Positions 9,507 to 46,275 of a DNA stretch of 64,000 nt are shown in pieces. Within the stretch, counting starts at the first letter, position 1. Each line of letters begins with the position of its first letter. The notes beneath the pieces were generated by a model. The model did not search any database. It was not told the origin of the DNA and saw only the letters and a program-made list of their open reading frames with translations. The position numbers and the translations under genes are program-made. Source of the stretch: a phage; assembly GCA_024674815.1 (NCBI GenBank), contig GCA_024674815.1_4104.1; one strand, written 5' to 3'.

Positions 9507-9788
9507 TTATTCAACAATCCCCAACTTCACAATCTCATACCCGTCCAGATAGCCGTAGGAACACTCAGGTGTTTCATAAGATGAACCATCATAGATGCCC
9601 TGGCATTGGCTTTTGGAATTCTCAAGCAATCGTTGCAGTACTGATACGTCATCAAGAACGTAATACAAGTTAGCATATAGGTCCGTTACAATACAGTACT
9701 CCAACATGTCAAATGTATCAATCGAAATTTCAACCTTAGCAAATCGTTTCTTTTCTTTATTATACAGTGCGTACATATTAATCTCCAT
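9507..9788 (-). CDS. hypothetical protein
   Basis: ORF; start trimmed to internal Met to limit overlap. Confidence 0.45.
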   Translation of the reverse strand: MEINMYALYNKEKKRFAKVEISIDTFDMLEYCIVTDLYANLYYVLDDVSVLQRLLENSKSQCQGIYDGSSYETPECSYGYLDGYEIVKLGIVE

Positions 9789-10149
9789 AATCAAGTTTAA
9801 CCAACTTACCACACAGATACCCAAAGTTTTCTGGCTTCGCATCTGAATAGAAGAAGTCAGTACTTAACTCTGAATTCAATGCTAAAGCACACAACTCCAC
9901 CCAAAATAAACCCCTATGTTGTACTGGATTACAACGTTTCTGTACAGTTACTAGTCCAGTACATGATGACCACAAAGTAGGACAGATACCACTACCACTA
10001 CGCTTGGAGTACTGCATCCACGAACGTTCATTGAGGTTAGCTATCATTCCTGTCAAGAATAACTTCCAGCTTTTGAAGGTTGGAATCTTGATAGCATAAT
10101 CCCCAATAAGGATAACAGTTCGTGTTGCACCTTTCAAATCTATATTCAT
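9778..10149 (-). CDS. hypothetical protein
   Basis: ORF; start trimmed to internal Met. Confidence 0.45.
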   Translation of the reverse strand: MNIDLKGATRTVILIGDYAIKIPTFKSWKLFLTGMIANLNERSWMQYSKRSGSGICPTLWSSCTGLVTVQKRCNPVQHRGLFWVELCALALNSELSTDFFYSDAKPENFGYLCGKLVKLDYGD

Positions 10150-11900: not shown

Positions 11901-12269
11901 CTATCGATTCGGCATATTCTTTCGTAGTCGCAAGAGAAATTCAACCACTGACCATGTTGTAATGAAGGCTATATAAGTTGCAAGGAATCCAGTAAGAATA
12001 AATGCAACCAGCGTACTACCATTTGGGGAATCAGTTTTAATGCCGATGACACCATCGGCTACAGTGAAACATGTAGCCATTAATGTGTAACCTACGTACA
12101 ACACAAAGAAAAACTCATTCTCCATTGAAGGATAGAAACGGTTAAACACTTTATAAAATTTAAAGTACAGTAGGATTATACCAACAAAGGCATAGAATGT
12201 AAACAGTGTTGTTATAATATATGAGATTAGGTTCAAATTATACATATCAACGCTCCGGTAGATTATCAC
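11901..12269 (-). CDS. small multi-TM membrane protein (family M)
   Basis: Hydrophobic; C-terminal LRLRKNMPNR. Confidence 0.6.
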   Translation of the reverse strand: MIIYRSVDMYNLNLISYIITTLFTFYAFVGIILLYFKFYKVFNRFYPSMENEFFFVLYVGYTLMATCFTVADGVIGIKTDSPNGSTLVAFILTGFLATYIAFITTWSVVEFLLRLRKNMPNR

Positions 12270-12594
12270 GTAATGTTTTAATTCGATGATACATTTTCAT
12301 ACCAATATTACCAAAGATACCATATCCAAGTACTAAAATGTATGCAATAAGCATAGTAATAATTACTATAGTGCCAAAACTATAATGTACACTACTGATA
12401 CCCATTGTAGTTTCAACGATTATTTGAGAAACTGAAAGAATCAAAAGTACAACTACAATTGGATGATTTGGGTACATTCGGTTGAACAACGTTTTGTACT
12501 TAAAGAAGCACAGTACTCCACCGAATAAGAAGTACACAATGTAAATGCAAGCAACAGCATAGGCAAACATGTTAGTGTAATAAATCATTACCAA
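12247..12594 (-). CDS. small multi-TM membrane protein (family M)
   Basis: Hydrophobic; C-terminal LRDNLPER. Confidence 0.6.
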   Translation of the reverse strand: MVMIYYTNMFAYAVACIYIVYFLFGGVLCFFKYKTLFNRMYPNHPIVVVLLILSVSQIIVETTMGISSVHYSFGTIVIITMLIAYILVLGYGIFGNIGMKMYHRIKTLRDNLPER

Positions 12595-12597
12595 TCC

Positions 12598-12936
12598 TTA
12601 CTTTTCAGGGATATTAGAACGCCATATATCAATGCGATGAACTAGTCCAAAGAACAACCATACTGGAACGGCAGCTATCATAACAACAAATGAAAACCCA
12701 GTCAACACCGATACCAGATTTAATTCATCAGTACTATACCCACATATCAGTACTTCTAATATTCCCCACGTACATGCACAAAACATCAAGAATGAAATTG
12801 GGGCATCATAGTAGATACGTTCATATAAAGTAGTATATCGGAAGAATGCAATAATATAGCAAAACATATAATACACCCAAACCAAAGATACTACATAAAA
12901 TGATACTTTGTTTATTAATTCAAAATATTGTTCCAT
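12598..12936 (-). CDS. small multi-TM membrane protein (family M)
   Basis: Hydrophobic; C-terminal WRSNIPEK. Confidence 0.6.
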   Translation of the reverse strand: MEQYFELINKVSFYVVSLVWVYYMFCYIIAFFRYTTLYERIYYDAPISFLMFCACTWGILEVLICGYSTDELNLVSVLTGFSFVVMIAAVPVWLFFGLVHRIDIWRSNIPEK

Positions 12937-12938
12937 TT

Positions 12939-13220
12939 TTACCCCAATATATATTCAGAGAGTAATGTATTAGCTTCATCTTTGTTCTTAAGGTAATACA
13001 TGTAATATAGATTCGGTTCACCATCTTTAGTACTCAAATCAAAGTACTTTAAACTATGTACTTTCATAGTAAAAACAAATAATGACTTAAAACCAATCTC
13101 ACCGTACTTAATAAACAGTTCATCCAAATGAATGTAACTTTTTGATTTGGATAATTCTTTAACGTCTGCATCAATTTCAGATAAAAGATGCTTACCTATT
13201 AAGTTTTCAAATGAACGCAT
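12939..13220 (-). CDS. hypothetical protein
   Basis: 93-aa ORF. Confidence 0.5.
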   Translation of the reverse strand: MRSFENLIGKHLLSEIDADVKELSKSKSYIHLDELFIKYGEIGFKSLFVFTMKVHSLKYFDLSTKDGEPNLYYMYYLKNKDEANTLLSEYILG

Positions 13221-13281
13221 GATTTTATCCTTTACCGCAATTTTTATGGTTTATTAAGAATACACCAGAACATCAGTTCTG

Positions 13282-13923
13282 TCAATAAAAAACTGGATCT
13301 TCTTCAGTAATTGGTATTTCTCTACGCACATCACACGAAAGAGGATCAGTAATGAATACATTCCCATCTTTATCCATCATTACATTACTTGAATGAATGT
13401 CTGGTACAAAACGCCCGTGAAACTCTTTCATGATGTTAGCAGCGACCGTCGCAATAGCAATCTCTTCAGAATTACCACGCATATCATTCACTGAAGTAGC
13501 GTACTGACCAGCATGTGCATAAGAATATAAATCTCCAATTTTAGTACTAACAAAGTCATCATAATTATTTTTTTGTTTAATTATAGGATAGTACTTGTCC
13601 ATCTCATACCATCCAAAGTTTCCTTGTTCGTTGGCACTGTAGATCACTGGAAGAAACTTGGTTCCTGCGTTTTCAATGCAGTACTTTGCATAAGCACGAA
13701 AACCATCCCAGCGTGAAGTGGTTACTTTAAATGCACGTCCAGGATAGTTTTTATGTTCAACTACTACAGAGTACATCCCCATTCCAAGAAAAGTAAGTCC
13801 AGCAGCTTTAACTTGTGGAAAGATTACGCGTTCAGCATAAGGAATATCAAACTCCATCGCACAACGAGTTTTTGATGGACGCAAAATGTCAATTAAAGTT
13901 TTGAATATGTCTTGCTTAGTCAT
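13282..13923 (-). CDS. protein-kinase-like fold protein
   Basis: LGMGMYSVV (Gly-loop-like), AFKV, DIHSSNVMMDKDGNVFITDP (catalytic-loop-like); start set at Met preceded by GAGGA. Confidence 0.5.
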   Translation of the reverse strand: MTKQDIFKTLIDILRPSKTRCAMEFDIPYAERVIFPQVKAAGLTFLGMGMYSVVVEHKNYPGRAFKVTTSRWDGFRAYAKYCIENAGTKFLPVIYSANEQGNFGWYEMDKYYPIIKQKNNYDDFVSTKIGDLYSYAHAGQYATSVNDMRGNSEEIAIATVAANIMKEFHGRFVPDIHSSNVMMDKDGNVFITDPLSCDVRREIPITEEDPVFY

Positions 13924-13951
13924 TACTTTATCCTCTGTAGTTAATACCAAC

Positions 13952-13984
13952 ATCATAACAAAAAAGGCTGACCGAAGTCAACCC
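13952..13984 (-). promoter_or_regulatory. PeSL-like cassette (hairpin + weaker -10 TATGAT)
   Basis: ggctgaccgaagtcaaccc hairpin; TTGACT-17-TATGAT. Confidence 0.5.
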
Positions 13985-13992
13985 TTTTATTA

Positions 13993-15050: not shown

Positions 15051-15068
15051 GGCTGACCGAAGTCAACC
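15051..15068 (-). terminator. PeSL-type terminator hairpin
   Basis: ggctgaccgaagtcaacc, A-run before and T-run after in plus orientation. Confidence 0.6.
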
Positions 15069-15078
15069 TTTTGTTTTA

Positions 15079-16332
15079 TCATTTACCGTATTTGCTCATG
15101 ATGTCCTTTTCCCAAGGAGTTACATTTCCATTTTCGTAATCACGGAAAGAGTCATCAAGTGTAGTCAATGCATAATCATATGCCTCACCGGATTCAACAT
15201 CAATATCAACAGCACCATTCACTACATCAGTCCACGCTTTTTGTAGTTTACGAGCGTTGTTACCAACTTTATCTTTAATCCAACTAAGATTTCGGTTTAT
15301 ACTCTTCTTATCAGCACCAGCTTTTTCACCAACATCTGCAACCCATTGCATTAATTTCTGTAGTTCGTTATGGGATTTTTCAGTCATTTGGCGGTCTTGT
15401 GACAGTTCAGCTTCCATGTCATCAATTTCTTCGTCTGAATGAACATCGTTCTGTTCTACTGCACCTTCTTCATCATCACGCATCAGATAACCATCTCGTG
15501 TAACCTTCTCACCATGATCAGCTTCATACTTTTTCATAGTATTGAATGCAGCATCCATTGCAGTTACAAAACGACTCTTTTCACCTTGTACATAAGATTT
15601 AAGTGCATCGTTAACTGCATCAGATACTAATTTAATCTTATCGTCTTTACCTTCCAGACGGTTTTCTAACTTAGCTAGTACATTCTTAACTTTTTGAGCA
15701 TTAGCACGGTCTTCTTTACCAATACTATCAAATGTTTTAAGTACGCTTTCAAGACTTACTTCCTCTTGTGCAGGCACATCACCTTGTTGCGTACCTTCAA
15801 GTGCACGCATTATAGTACTGAATACTTCAGTTGGTTCAGTACTGGTATTTCCACTCATTGCATCAAGCACAGCTTGTGCTTTGACTTTTAATTCTTCTTT
15901 AGGTACAGATTGCAATTCTTTCACAATACCTTGGATAAGTTGTGGTTTATTAGCAAAAATCTTACCTAACTTATCCGACAGTTCTTTGACAGGGTTAACC
16001 GCCTTTGGTGCTTCTTGTTTTGGTTCTTCTTTAGCAGGAGCAGATTTTTCTTTTTCTTCACGTTCCATATCAGCTAGGCGTTGTTTTTGTGTAGCATTAA
16101 GAAGTCCCAATGAATTAACATAACGTAGCTTTTCTAGCTCAGTCATGTTCTCAGTACTCTTAACTTCACCTGCTTCTGCGTTTGCTTTACCAGCTAGACC
16201 AGTTCCTTGGTTACGTGATCCACGTGAACCTTGACCTGCTTGATAACTATTTGGACGGCGGTTGCGTTCACTCCATTTATCAGAGTGACCAGCCATGTTA
16301 CCACCATTTTTATCAGTAAAATTACTTGGCAT
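15079..16332 (-). CDS. large charged hypothetical protein (paralog of 16602..16985)
   Basis: Shares LRYVNSLGLL and KEL-x-VPKEELKVKA segments with 16602..16985; start set at Met after GGAGAG. Confidence 0.6.
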   Translation of the reverse strand: MPSNFTDKNGGNMAGHSDKWSERNRRPNSYQAGQGSRGSRNQGTGLAGKANAEAGEVKSTENMTELEKLRYVNSLGLLNATQKQRLADMEREEKEKSAPAKEEPKQEAPKAVNPVKELSDKLGKIFANKPQLIQGIVKELQSVPKEELKVKAQAVLDAMSGNTSTEPTEVFSTIMRALEGTQQGDVPAQEEVSLESVLKTFDSIGKEDRANAQKVKNVLAKLENRLEGKDDKIKLVSDAVNDALKSYVQGEKSRFVTAMDAAFNTMKKYEADHGEKVTRDGYLMRDDEEGAVEQNDVHSDEEIDDMEAELSQDRQMTEKSHNELQKLMQWVADVGEKAGADKKSINRNLSWIKDKVGNNARKLQKAWTDVVNGAVDIDVESGEAYDYALTTLDDSFRDYENGNVTPWEKDIMSKYGK

Positions 16333-16392
16333 TTGATTTCTCTCCATAGATTTCATTTTTTCTCTATGTCTATATTTATAGTATAAAGAAAA

Positions 16393-16410
16393 GGCTGACC
16401 GAAGTCAACC
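16393..16410 (-). terminator. PeSL-type terminator hairpin
   Basis: ggctgaccgaagtcaacc plus flanking U-run on minus strand. Confidence 0.55.
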
Positions 16411-16561: not shown

Positions 16562-16595
16562 ATGATACAACAAAGGGCTGACCTTAGTCAACCCC
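16562..16595 (-). promoter_or_regulatory. PeSL-like cassette, variant loop
   Basis: gggctgaccttagtcaacccc hairpin; TTGACT-18-TATCAT. Confidence 0.5.
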
Positions 16596-19804: not shown

Positions 19805-19836
19805 ATTATAACAAAAAAGGCTGACCGAAGTCAACC
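19805..19836 (-). promoter_or_regulatory. PeSL-like cassette (terminator hairpin + promoter)
   Basis: ggctgaccgaagtcaacc hairpin; TTGACT-18-TATAAT. Confidence 0.6.
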
Positions 19837-40540: not shown

Positions 40541-40630
<90 letters not shown>

Positions 40631-40642
40631 AGAAGTAAGATA

Positions 40643-40743
<101 letters not shown>

Positions 40744-40795
40744 GCCAAGAGTCGGCATAGGTGCAGCACTACAAAGTTCTTCAAGCTGCTTGGTA

Positions 40796-40827
<32 letters not shown>

Positions 40828-40828
40828 T

Positions 40829-40885
<57 letters not shown>

Positions 40886-40887
40886 TA

Positions 40888-41014
<127 letters not shown>

Positions 41015-41033
41015 GCATACTCGAAGTACCTCT

Positions 41034-41071
<38 letters not shown>

Positions 41072-41096
41072 AACTGAATACTTACATCCTACGTCC

Positions 41097-41438
<342 letters not shown>

Positions 41439-41447
41439 TAATACCCG

Positions 41448-41849
41448 CTAGTAGTTTAAGTCTGCGGCGTTGAATACACCAAGTGAAGTCTTACCACGTA
41501 GTTTAGGTGAAAGGACATACTTTGTCAATTTCTTTTTACCGTACCAGTGATTGAATTCGTCTTCAGTAACATGTGGGTTCTGGAAATCGTATTCACGTTT
41601 CTTATGAAGTTTTTTAGCTTGTTCTGCAATCTTAGTTCGTTGATCTTCTGGAATGTCGAATGTATTGTTACGTTTGCACCATTCGTGCACTAATGCTTCC
41701 AGAAGGAACTGTTCAGTTTCTTTGACTAGAGTGATTTTAGTCAAGCCTTTTTCGATGTTCATATAATCATCGACATATCCATTCCAAATAACAATCTCTG
41801 GATTGCCGTCAATCTCTTGAAGCATTTTGATCAAGTCATTCTTTTTCAT
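41448..41849 (-). CDS. hypothetical protein
   Basis: 133-aa ORF. Confidence 0.6.
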   Translation of the reverse strand: MKKNDLIKMLQEIDGNPEIVIWNGYVDDYMNIEKGLTKITLVKETEQFLLEALVHEWCKRNNTFDIPEDQRTKIAEQAKKLHKKREYDFQNPHVTEDEFNHWYGKKKLTKYVLSPKLRGKTSLGVFNAADLNY

Positions 41850-41857
41850 TTAAATTC

Positions 41858-42115
<258 letters not shown>

Positions 42116-42124
42116 ATTTGTTTC

Positions 42125-42310
42125 CTATGAAATGAATGTAGCGTTAATTCCCATTATAAATGAAAATATACCAAACAATATCAACCCGATTGGTACAAAG
42201 ATCATAGATCTATTTCCATGTTTCGATAAAAATCGTTCAACTGTAATTAAACGTATTGATATCGGAACCATTATAATAATATACAATATTGAAAGAATTA
42301 AAAGTTGCAT
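42125..42310 (-). CDS. small membrane protein
   Basis: 61 aa, two hydrophobic segments. Confidence 0.45.
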   Translation of the reverse strand: MQLLILSILYIIIMVPISIRLITVERFLSKHGNRSMIFVPIGLILFGIFSFIMGINATFIS

Positions 42311-42323
42311 TTTAATTTCCTAT

Positions 42324-42749
<426 letters not shown>

Positions 42750-42765
42750 ATATCAATACTTAATA

Positions 42766-43143
<378 letters not shown>

Positions 43144-43149
43144 ATCACC

Positions 43150-43500
43150 AACTTTAATTAAAAAAATGGATGGTGACGCTTTTAAACGCCGCTGTTAATT
43201 CAGCTTTATAACCACCCGTTTTAACTTGCCTTTCGGCTACCTTGACGTGGGGCGTACAGGCTACTAAAAGCAACTACTGTAAACATATTTCCACGCCTTA
43301 CCCTTTTAAATAAAAGTCCATCCGGTTTTACAGTTTGGTGAAGGATAGTCACCTCTAGTTTAAACCTGCTAGTCAAGTAATAATTGCCTATCGTCCAATT
43401 ATCAAACCCGTCTAGGTTAACATTCACCACTTCCTAGAGTACCAGAGATCTTGTTCTGGATTGCATCGACGTAACTTACACCATATACGTCTGATTGTGG
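43150..43500 (-). ncRNA. candidate small stable RNA region in tRNA cluster
   Basis: ORF-poor; directly downstream of near-consensus promoter at 43506-43534; exact ends unknown. Confidence 0.25.
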
Positions 43501-43505
43501 AATTC

Positions 43506-43543
<38 letters not shown>

Positions 43544-43600
43544 ACAAATCTGGACGTTCATCTTTAAACATATTAATATCCTCAGTACTGAATTATTTAG

Positions 43601-44184
<584 letters not shown>

Positions 44185-44188
<4 letters not shown>

Positions 44189-44345
44189 ATTCGTACCAGT
44201 AGTTCAATTAAGTACATTTCATATGCTGGATCGTTGATAAGTTTATCATACATATGTGGCTCTGAAATGAATTCCCAATGATACTTTAGCCATTTACCGA
44301 TACCCGAATATCTAAAATTAATGTCATTCATCCATTCTTCATGTG

Positions 44346-44349
<4 letters not shown>
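44185..44349 (-). CDS. MTHEEW mini-protein paralog (~54 aa; approximate coordinates)
   Basis: Starts MTHEEWMNDINFRYSGIG; near-duplicate of next copy. Confidence 0.45.
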
Positions 44350-44510
<161 letters not shown>

Positions 44511-44515
44511 GGTTT

Positions 44516-44617
<102 letters not shown>

Positions 44618-44621
44618 ATTT

Positions 44622-44737
<116 letters not shown>

Positions 44738-44754
44738 ATGTGATGTCCCATTAT

Positions 44755-45027
44755 TTATGATTCAGTTTGAGGATTAAATTTGATAAATTCATCTTTATGT
44801 TCATCTTCAAACGCAATATCTTCTACGTATTCAGGCCAAATCGTAGTGTCTCCTTGATAAAAGCGATAATTATCAAATACTGCACTACGCGTTCTTCCCT
44901 GTTCCCAGCCAATCGTACAGTCATGATATACATCCCCACTACTTGTACGAATACTAATGGTGTCTTGAGTTTCATAAAGAACTTCAATGCGTGTGTTACG
45001 ATTTACGTTGAATTTTTCAAAATGCAT
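44755..45027 (-). CDS. hypothetical protein
   Basis: 90-aa ORF. Confidence 0.55.
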   Translation of the reverse strand: MHFEKFNVNRNTRIEVLYETQDTISIRTSSGDVYHDCTIGWEQGRTRSAVFDNYRFYQGDTTIWPEYVEDIAFEDEHKDEFIKFNPQTES

Positions 45028-45080
45028 AATATTATCCTCATCTAGAACCAGTGATAATCATTATATAATGAATTAATGAT

Positions 45081-45299
45081 TTATGCAAGTGTTTTAGATA
45101 CACCGACACCAATAATTCCAGTGATATCGATATGGATATTGGCAAGTTGATTACTATCATATGGGTTTGTTTCTGTAATAACCAATGTTGTATCATTGAC
45201 TAAAACCACAGTACCTTTTACACGATAACCATGTAGTAGTACTTGAACCTCATCTTCAGGTTTTAATGATTGAATAACTTCTAATAAAGTTGTTTCCAT
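45081..45299 (-). CDS. hypothetical protein (start trimmed)
   Basis: ORF; internal Met chosen to avoid overlap. Confidence 0.4.
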   Translation of the reverse strand: METTLLEVIQSLKPEDEVQVLLHGYRVKGTVVLVNDTTLVITETNPYDSNQLANIHIDITGIIGVGVSKTLA

Positions 45300-45315
45300 T
45301 TTTTGTATTCCTTGT

Positions 45316-45498
45316 TTAGTTTTGATTATTTGACTTTCTAAATGCCAGTTCGCATATAAACCAGGGTTTTCTGGTATCCAAAACATATGACCTGAAAAGA
45401 TTTTCATCTCTTAATATATCATAATGTACCTGACGAATGCCATTCCCAAAGCAGTCATGTTCTTTATGCTGTTTGGACATCCATTCTTCGTGTGTCAT
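45316..45498 (-). CDS. MTHEEW mini-protein paralog
   Basis: MTHEEWMSKQHKEHDCFGNGIRQVHYDIL. Confidence 0.55.
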   Translation of the reverse strand: MTHEEWMSKQHKEHDCFGNGIRQVHYDILRDENLFRSYVLDTRKPWFICELAFRKSNNQN

Positions 45499-45499
45499 T

Positions 45500-45835
<336 letters not shown>

Positions 45836-46095: not shown

Positions 46096-46275
46096 TTATA
46101 TTTTTTTGTCTCTAACCGCAAGCTCATAGATGAACCAACGATTTCCATTCTCATCTAGTACATATGATTCGAACTTATATTTGTCTCGTAAAATATCGAA
46201 ATGACCATCAATAAATCCATTTCCAAACTGGTCATAACGTTTTTTCATCATTGCCATCCATTCTTCATGTGTCAT
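46096..46275 (-). CDS. MTHEEW mini-protein paralog (59 aa; approximate coordinates)
   Basis: MTHEEWMAMMKKRYDQFGNGFIDGHFDIL; ATGA overlap with upstream gene. Confidence 0.45.
   Translation of the reverse strand: MTHEEWMAMMKKRYDQFGNGFIDGHFDILRDKYKFESYVLDENGNRWFIYELAVRDKKI

Follow-up and report, generated by a model that had tools for sequence, protein, structure and literature searches.

A predicted minimal protein kinase of the T7 gp0.7 family, without the shutoff domain, in a jumbo phage related to Escherichia phage 121Q

The gene described here lies in a 64,000-nucleotide (nt) stretch of phage DNA (assembly GCA_024674815.1, contig GCA_024674815.1_4104.1), hereafter called the window. It occupies positions 13282 to 13923 on the minus strand and comprises 213 codons and a stop codon, and its product opens with MTKQDIF. 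The sequence, the annotated orthologs and the homology to the kinase of phage T7, gp0.7 (T7K), mark it as the coding sequence (CDS) of a T7K-like minimal protein kinase of 213 amino acids (aa). The initial annotation, made from the DNA letters, had proposed a protein-kinase-like open reading frame (ORF) here without naming a strand, and its coordinates matched the CDS and stop codon exactly. Sequence identity of the region to Escherichia phage 121Q was 99.4%, and some 20 further Asteriusvirus jumbo phages, 310 to 373 kb in size, matched it at 98.7 to 99.3% (PBECO4, G17 and Sharanji are among the Asteriusvirus phages). From 2.7 to 64 kb, the window consists almost entirely of small leftward ORFs with no assigned function, and the same context surrounds the orthologs in phages Munch, EJP2 and Hallingskeid. 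The orthologs include 121Q gp205, G17_00108 (QBO61604.1), Sharanji gp144 (WNN14432.1), a PBECO4 protein, Munch CPT_Munch_521 and Hallingskeid CDS0116. Many of the ortholog records already carry the label "protein kinase", and the G17 record cites CDD PHA00451, the T7 protein-kinase model.

The program-made ORF list also contained a longer form of 224 aa, which begins at an upstream ATG at 13956 (13954 to 13956, minus strand) and is the form given in the 121Q and Sharanji records. The exact length of 213 aa was found in 19 of the 27 homologues, and the N-terminus was level with MTKQ in all 24 aligned homologues; an internal insertion lengthens the more distant homologues to as much as 237 aa. 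In addition, a Shine-Dalgarno-like AGAGGA (13931 to 13936, minus strand) is located 7 nt before the ATG at 13923, and the -10 hexamer of a promoter-like site described below contains the upstream ATG. Because of the homologue lengths and N-termini, the position of AGAGGA and the location of the upstream ATG, the start at 13923 is favoured over the one annotated in 121Q and Sharanji, and the ATG at 13956 is probably not the true start of the kinase gene.

The product matched PHROG 15752, which is labelled with the description of T7 gp0.7, at an E value of 5.4e-91 and PHROG 2828, the family containing T7 gp0.7, at 1.7e-16. Reciprocally, T7 gp0.7 matched both families. A BLASTP comparison with T7 gp0.7 gave 27% identity over 164 aa (E value of 1e-8), and hhalign with a profile of 25 homologues aligned residues 34 to 210 with residues 61 to 230 of T7 gp0.7 at a probability of 98.5% (E value of 3.7e-15). 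The hhalign match spanned just this part of T7K, with no counterpart of the shutoff/DNA-binding domain (residues 243 to 359). Judged by its sequence, the protein belongs to the T7K kinase-domain family, and every sequence feature of the family that was looked for was found. The predicted product is not a full-length gp0.7 because the shutoff domain is missing. For the 121Q and PBECO4 orthologs, RefSeq gives the 224-aa form, which is 11 codons longer, and the product name [quoted passage not shown]. This name carries over too much from T7 gp0.7 of full length, as it belongs in part to the shutoff domain that is missing here.

Protein identity was 98.6 to 99.1% in 121Q, PBECO4, G17 and Sharanji and 91 to 95% in UE-S1 and ph0011. 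Full-length relatives were present in 30 jumbo-phage records of the phage collection, with identities of 91 to 99% in Asteriusvirus, 60 to 62% in Munch (62%), 7t3, SE_PL, PHA46 and fENko-Kae01, 56% in EJP2 and 46% in Erwinia phage Hallingskeid. The remaining approximately 685 of the 715 matching phage records showed less than 60% identity; among those matches listed, all were T7-like podophages of approximately 37 to 45 kb with 26 to 33% identity. When 1.84 billion cluster representatives were searched with a profile, 1475 clusters matched at an E value of ≤1e-3 and 196 at ≤1e-10. Three metagenomic representatives, P0036 (1021 aa), P0037 (1343 aa) and P0062 (813 aa), showed 5 to 9 separate stretches that matched the jumbo-phage kinase profile, which suggests large proteins with repeated or multidomain T7K-like modules.

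The three motifs quoted in the initial annotation were all located on the minus strand: LGMGMYSVV corresponds to residues 46 to 54 (13762 to 13788), AFKV to residues 64 to 67 (13723 to 13734), and the catalytic-loop-like stretch DIHSSNVMMDKDGNVFITDP to residues 175 to 194 (13342 to 13401). In an alignment of 25 homologues reaching down to 39% identity, G47, G49, K66, D175, H177, N180 and T192-D193-P194 were invariant. This conservation, like the PHROG and hhalign matches, indicates that the motifs are no chance occurrence. The residue equivalences to T7K were taken from BLASTP and hhalign. In the glycine-rich loop (L46-G-M-G-M-Y-S-V-V54), G47 and G49 correspond to T7K G74 and G76, and in the beta3 motif (A-F-K66-V), K66 lies in a predicted strand (residues 63 to 68) and corresponds to K93. 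The catalytic loop D175-I-H177-S-S-N180 and the Mg-binding T192-D193-P194-L195 together span 13339 to 13401; D175, H177 and N180 correspond to D195, H197 and N200, and the DPL of residues 193 to 195 corresponds to D213-P214-V215, at the DFG position. The third residue of DPL is L, with F in one relative. The spacings in the catalytic region are 5 from D to N and 13 from N to D. The same spacings separate D166, N171 and D184 of PKA. D175 and D193 also lined up, in a weak sequence alignment, with the aspartates of the PAK4 HRD and DFG motifs. The C-terminus carries a conserved acidic tail, R-R-E-I-P-I-T-E-E-D-P (residues 200 to 210; 13294 to 13326, minus strand), which was identified from the alignment and the structural model. 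The kinase reading had been made dependent on a catalytic lysine and aspartate in a structure-based alignment, and K66, D175 and D193 were invariant, aligned with T7K K93, D195 and D213 and took canonical places in the model.

The invariance across the clade covered all T7K-equivalent residues except L195 and S196. S196, whose codon is at 13336 to 13338, is equivalent to S216, the inhibitory autophosphorylation site of T7K; the Ser is present in the window protein and is not conserved across the jumbo clade, where most other homologues have Gly or Ala in the same column. [quoted passage not shown]

The AlphaFold2 model of the protein had a predicted local distance difference test (pLDDT) score of 93.5 and a predicted template modelling (pTM) score of 0.89. 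Foldseek against the PDB gave 213 matches at an E value of ≤1e-3, and the top 50 were protein kinases together with the aminoglycoside phosphotransferase APH(3')-IIIa. Structure prediction, which the initial annotation had named as a way to check for a kinase fold, thus pointed to essentially protein kinases only. The model placed K66 in beta3, D175 after beta6, N180 before beta7 and D193 after beta8, which are the canonical positions. The N-lobe sheet and alphaC helix of eukaryotic protein kinases, a catalytic loop between beta6 and beta7 and an Mg-binding Asp after beta8 were all present in the predicted structure. The layout consists of an N-terminal three-helix extension (residues 3 to 40), the N-lobe, two helices and the catalytic and Mg-binding loops. 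The chain stops at residue 213, 20 residues past the DFG-equivalent DPL, and neither an activation segment (APE) nor alphaF to alphaI helices were found in the alignment or the model of the 213-aa protein. The template modelling (TM) values in Foldseek were modest (0.35 to 0.45 of the query), as were the fold scores, because the protein is a minimal kinase. The significant homology to T7 gp0.7, the intact catalytic residues and the predicted kinase fold support the protein-kinase-like reading of the initial annotation, and we are practically certain that the gene encodes a T7K-family protein with a kinase fold and an intact active site.

Immediately upstream of the gene, a hairpin (AAAAGGGTTGAC-TTCG-GTCAGCC followed by TTTTTT; 13960 to 13988, minus strand) with an RNA folding energy of -15.7 kcal/mol resembles an intrinsic terminator and follows the upstream gene. 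G17 annotates the equivalent hairpin site as a terminator only. A sigma70-type promoter-like site overlaps this hairpin (13952 to 13981, minus strand), with the consensus-like hexamers TTGACT (13981 to 13976) and, after an 18-nt spacer, a TG-extended TATGAT (13957 to 13952). The -35-like TTGACT sits within the 5' arm of the hairpin, and the order upstream of the kinase is TTGACT-18-TGnTATGAT, AGAGGA and ATG. The same arrangement recurs in the window as a cassette, in which the hairpin (A)AAGGGTTGAC-TTCG-GTCAGCC(C) and a T-run are combined with TTGACT, a TATAAT-like box 17 to 18 nt further on, a ribosome-binding site (RBS) and an ATG. Between 6.7 and 19.8 kb, its 17-mer core was found in eight minus-strand copies (6695 to 6711, 8113 to 8129, 9395 to 9411, 13966 to 13982, 15051 to 15067, 16393 to 16409, 16576 to 16592 and 19819 to 19835), against 0.01 expected. 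The TATAAT-like box followed in seven of the eight copies (it was not evident at 15051), and an RBS and ATG followed in all eight. The predicted terminator and the predicted sigma70-type promoter form one element in this cassette.

Nearly identical copies of the core were also found in compared loci (L005 at 1504, 3927 and 4767; L007 at 1699, 2446, 4328 and 5623). Munch and Hallingskeid have an almost unchanged core, although their kinases are just 62% and 46% identical to that of the window. In Hallingskeid, the cassette lies upstream of the kinase ATG at a distance of 55 nt; in Munch, it is approximately 1 kb upstream. At the other end of the gene, a weaker hairpin/promoter-like site (13257 to 13285, minus strand) precedes the next gene, which has its ATG at 13220. 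There, TTGACA overlaps the kinase stop codon, and the hairpin CAGAAC-TGAT-GTTCTG (-7.8 kcal/mol) is followed by TATTCT.

The initial annotation had placed the gene in an early region. Based on the gene context and the promoter consensus, we infer that the kinase gene is probably transcribed by the host sigma70 polymerase and would therefore be expressed early. For T7-like phages, a depletion of Ser, Thr and Tyr in early proteins has been reported. The fraction of these residues, which was 0.17 in the kinase and mostly 0.10 to 0.25 in the ORFs of the window, supports no inference in this genome of 33% GC without expression classes. Publications on phAPEC6 and fEgEco12 contained nothing on the kinase gene, promoters or timing.

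The identification of the kinase is already public, through the GenBank and RefSeq labels, the Sharanji paper (PMC11895373) and a recent study of T7K (PMC13645617). In that study, T7K hyperphosphorylated most host and phage proteins and disarmed Retron-Eco9, DarTG1 and further systems; when purified by itself, the kinase domain (residues 1 to 242) was active, and the G76F mutant was catalytically dead (PMC13645617). G76 is the residue with which G49 of the window protein aligns. The shutoff domain of T7K binds nucleic acid and directs the kinase to nucleic-acid-binding proteins, and it was proposed that the DP motif holds the kinase in an active DFG-in-like state (PMC13645617). Jumbophage homologues were described as having "lost the SO domain", with the Val of DPV less conserved (PMC13645617); because G17 has a single matching place, the G17 homologue in that study appears to be G17_00108. 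The kinase domain of JSS1_004 from Salmonella phage JSS1 phosphorylates DndFGH on Ser, Thr and Tyr, and both domains of JSS1_004 are needed in vivo against DndFGH (PMC12345140). The Sharanji paper (Virol J 2025) identified WNN14432.1 as a homologue of the T7 kinase and as a possible anti-defence factor through which host immunity may be compromised (PMC11895373). The initial annotation had regarded phage kinases of this kind as host-takeover or anti-defence effectors, which holds for the homologous T7K and JSS1_004 (PMC13645617, PMC12345140).

We propose that the gene product would be a minimal protein kinase of the T7K family, active on Ser/Thr and probably also on Tyr. It would consist of the three-helix extension, the kinase N-lobe, the catalytic loop and DPL, with neither a canonical substrate-binding C-lobe nor a shutoff (DNA-binding) domain. 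Shortly after the DNA enters the cell, the host sigma70 RNA polymerase would most likely transcribe the gene from the consensus promoter within the terminator hairpin. The kinase would subsequently phosphorylate proteins of the host, and possibly of the phage, and so contribute to takeover of the cell and to weakened anti-phage defences, as in T7K and JSS1_004. By analogy with these kinases, catalytic activity on proteins is highly probable and a role in host takeover or anti-defence has somewhat better than even chances; we consider the explanation as a whole to be likely.

Several results weigh against parts of this explanation. A local Pfam-A scan of the kinase protein was empty at an E value of ≤10, NCBIfam gave nothing significant (a single meaningless SurA match was far below the cut-off), and PDB sequence and profile searches gave insignificant kinase matches (E values of 0.3 to 1). 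T7 gp0.7 itself, however, returned nothing significant from the local Pfam-A, with one sub-threshold match at 0.66, and the Pfam negatives therefore cannot argue against a kinase. Because the PDB sequence and profile matches were insignificant, the fold evidence comes from the predicted structure. No clear equivalent of the alphaC glutamate could be named; the invariant D73 is a candidate. Regarding expression, the Munch kinase gene has no promoter of its own, and a generic promoter scan was not enriched over shuffled sequences (19 sites against 22.8 expected); the argument for early expression therefore rests on the repeated, conserved cassette. Regarding function, the shutoff domain, which targets T7K to nucleic-acid-binding proteins, is missing in the window protein. 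Because of this absence, and because JSS1_004 needs both domains, the transfer of the anti-defence mechanism from T7K is uncertain.

Among the database searches, a spectrin match in the PDB sequence and profile searches was rejected as spurious, and PADLOC gave no match. All 27 homologues carry the precomputed entry PF27024.1, which the local Pfam-A did not report.

The absence of the shutoff/DNA-binding domain also argues against a simple transfer of the T7K anti-defence mechanism in favour of an active kinase with a phage-internal task. Rather than work broadly against defences, this kinase would time development by phosphorylating phage proteins or a small number of specific host factors (RNA polymerase, RNases, translation factors). 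Such a task would resemble the classical model of T7 gp0.7, the regulation of RNA polymerase, RNase III and RNase E, which annotations still carry, and specific partners could be bound through the conserved N-terminal helices and the acidic C-terminal tail. However, every tested T7K homologue (T7, Bas64-68) was hyperpromiscuous (PMC13645617), and the window protein keeps the DP motif, the proposed lock of the active state. We consider a phage-internal regulator unlikely.

The appearance of APH(3')-IIIa at rank 15 in Foldseek raises a different reading, in which a kinase-fold enzyme acts on a non-protein substrate (a small molecule, a lipid or lipopolysaccharide sugar, an antibiotic or RNA) in the manner of aminoglycoside phosphotransferases, Kdo and choline kinases or Ark1 RNA kinases. 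The window protein is without the C-lobe elements that bind peptides, and its D-x-H-x-x-N has His where Ser/Thr kinases have Lys. However, T7K, which is experimentally a protein kinase, shares both the D-x-H-x-x-N loop and the truncated architecture (PMC13645617), and the top fold matches were nearly all protein kinases, which leaves a non-protein substrate with little credibility. A loss of catalysis together with the shutoff domain, which would make the protein a pseudokinase or ATP-binding scaffold, is hardly credible at all: the clade is divergent (27% identity to T7K) and its alphaC Glu is not identifiable, but all of the phosphotransfer residues (the G-loop Gly, beta3 Lys, catalytic Asp, Asn and Mg-binding Asp) are invariant down to 39% identity, and pseudokinases typically fail to keep them all.

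Within the preferred reading of an active T7K-family protein kinase, it is tentatively suggested that the kinase is more than a weakened T7K and was retargeted after the loss of the shutoff domain, with the clade-specific, strongly conserved N-terminal three-helix bundle and acidic tail (RREIPxTEEDP) serving substrate choice or regulation, or else that it is hyperpromiscuous without a targeting domain; it may act together with the 123-aa kinase-like protein described below. This proposal is more doubtful than the reading to which it belongs. If it is true, a retargeted or an untargeted outcome would separate "promiscuous catalysis" from "DNA-guided targeting" in the T7K family.

A second kinase-like ORF of 123 aa (9778 to 10149, minus strand), equivalent to 121Q gp215 ("hypothetical"), lies 3 kb downstream in the same transcription block. 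Its invariant residues are G7, K21, E41, D103-x-K-P-E-N108 and D120-Y-G, and the protein ends directly after this DFG-like motif. Relatives were found in 120 phage records, and among the matches listed, 38 of 40 were hypothetical or unannotated. The possibility that it is a paralog of the T7K-like kinase was rejected, with BLASTP empty and an hhalign probability of 0.5%. This protein is potentially more novel than the T7K-like gene. An 89-aa ORF (MYALYNKEKK...; 9507 to 9776, minus strand) starts 1 nt past the stop codon of the 123-aa gene, with a GGAG inside the end of that gene. It looks translationally coupled to the 123-aa gene, and the arrangement suggests that its product is a possible partner or regulator of the 123-aa protein.

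Other features of the window were recorded on the minus strand. Tandem paralogous hydrophobic, membrane-like proteins of approximately 112 to 115 aa are encoded at 11901 to 12936 and 4482 to 5816, with three directly downstream of the kinase operon (PHROG 19285, function unassigned) and four at 4.5 to 5.8 kb. The gene at 15079 to 16356 encodes an acidic low-complexity protein of 425 aa (121Q gp201; PHROG 20398, "virion structural protein"); it lies in the putative early block of small ORFs, behind a promoter/terminator cassette, and its product could be an injected internal protein. ARAGORN detected a tRNA cluster at 40551 to 45813 (Thr-TGT, Asn-GTT, Met-CAT, Ser-GCT, Ser-TGA and Gly-TCC). Rfam gave an extra borderline tRNA at 44539 to 44617 (29.3 bits, where the gathering score is 29), and the Gly gene was not in the Rfam list. 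Four paralogous ORFs of 54 to 59 aa, all starting with MTHEEWM, are located at 44024 to 44510 and 46096 to 46275, three of them in direct tandem beside the tRNA cluster. The only sizeable plus-strand genes of the window are at 298 to 2692, where two share the N-terminus MLPFGR. All of these plus-strand genes are rich in Ser, Thr and Tyr (0.23 to 0.32 against mostly 0.10 to 0.25 in the leftward ORFs), and, lying where the block of small ORFs borders on them, they may encode fibre or structural proteins.

To our knowledge, no phage enzymes other than the T7K-family kinases have been shown to disable many defence systems of bacteria together, through mass phosphorylation. A natural kinase without the shutoff domain in a 350-kb therapy-candidate phage offers a ready test of the kinase domain acting alone. 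This question was already raised in the 2025-2026 literature for the same gene, and the present analysis is a confirmation and not a discovery. Its additions are the favoured 213-aa start, the over-transfer in the RefSeq product name and the conserved sigma70 promoter cassette embedded in a terminator.

Finally, we compared the window protein with known systems. A literature search on phage "minimal kinases" returned reviews of bacterial effectors only. The minimal kinases OspG, NleH and HopBF1 act as effectors in eukaryotic cells, and the atypical kinases RIO and Bud32 are ribosome and tRNA factors; none of them has a detectable sequence relationship to the window protein. The published and annotated orthologs have the same length and the same context of small co-oriented ORFs and show essentially no difference from it. 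JSS1_004 belongs to the same T7K family and has the shutoff domain, whereas the window protein has none. Compared with T7K (UniProt P00513; PHROG 2828; CDD PHA00451), the window protein differs in its 27% identity, its length (213 against 359 aa), the absence of the shutoff domain (T7K residues 243 to 359), DPL in place of DPV, and a carrier that is a myovirus of approximately 350 kb and not a 40-kb podovirus of the Autographiviridae. The two proteins share the G-loop, the beta3 Lys, D-x-H-x-x-N, I-T-D-P in place of DFG and a Ser directly after it, and both are truncated, ending approximately 20 to 30 residues past the DFG position. In addition, T7K is transcribed from host-type promoters where a block of small genes begins, and a similar arrangement is predicted for the gene in the window.
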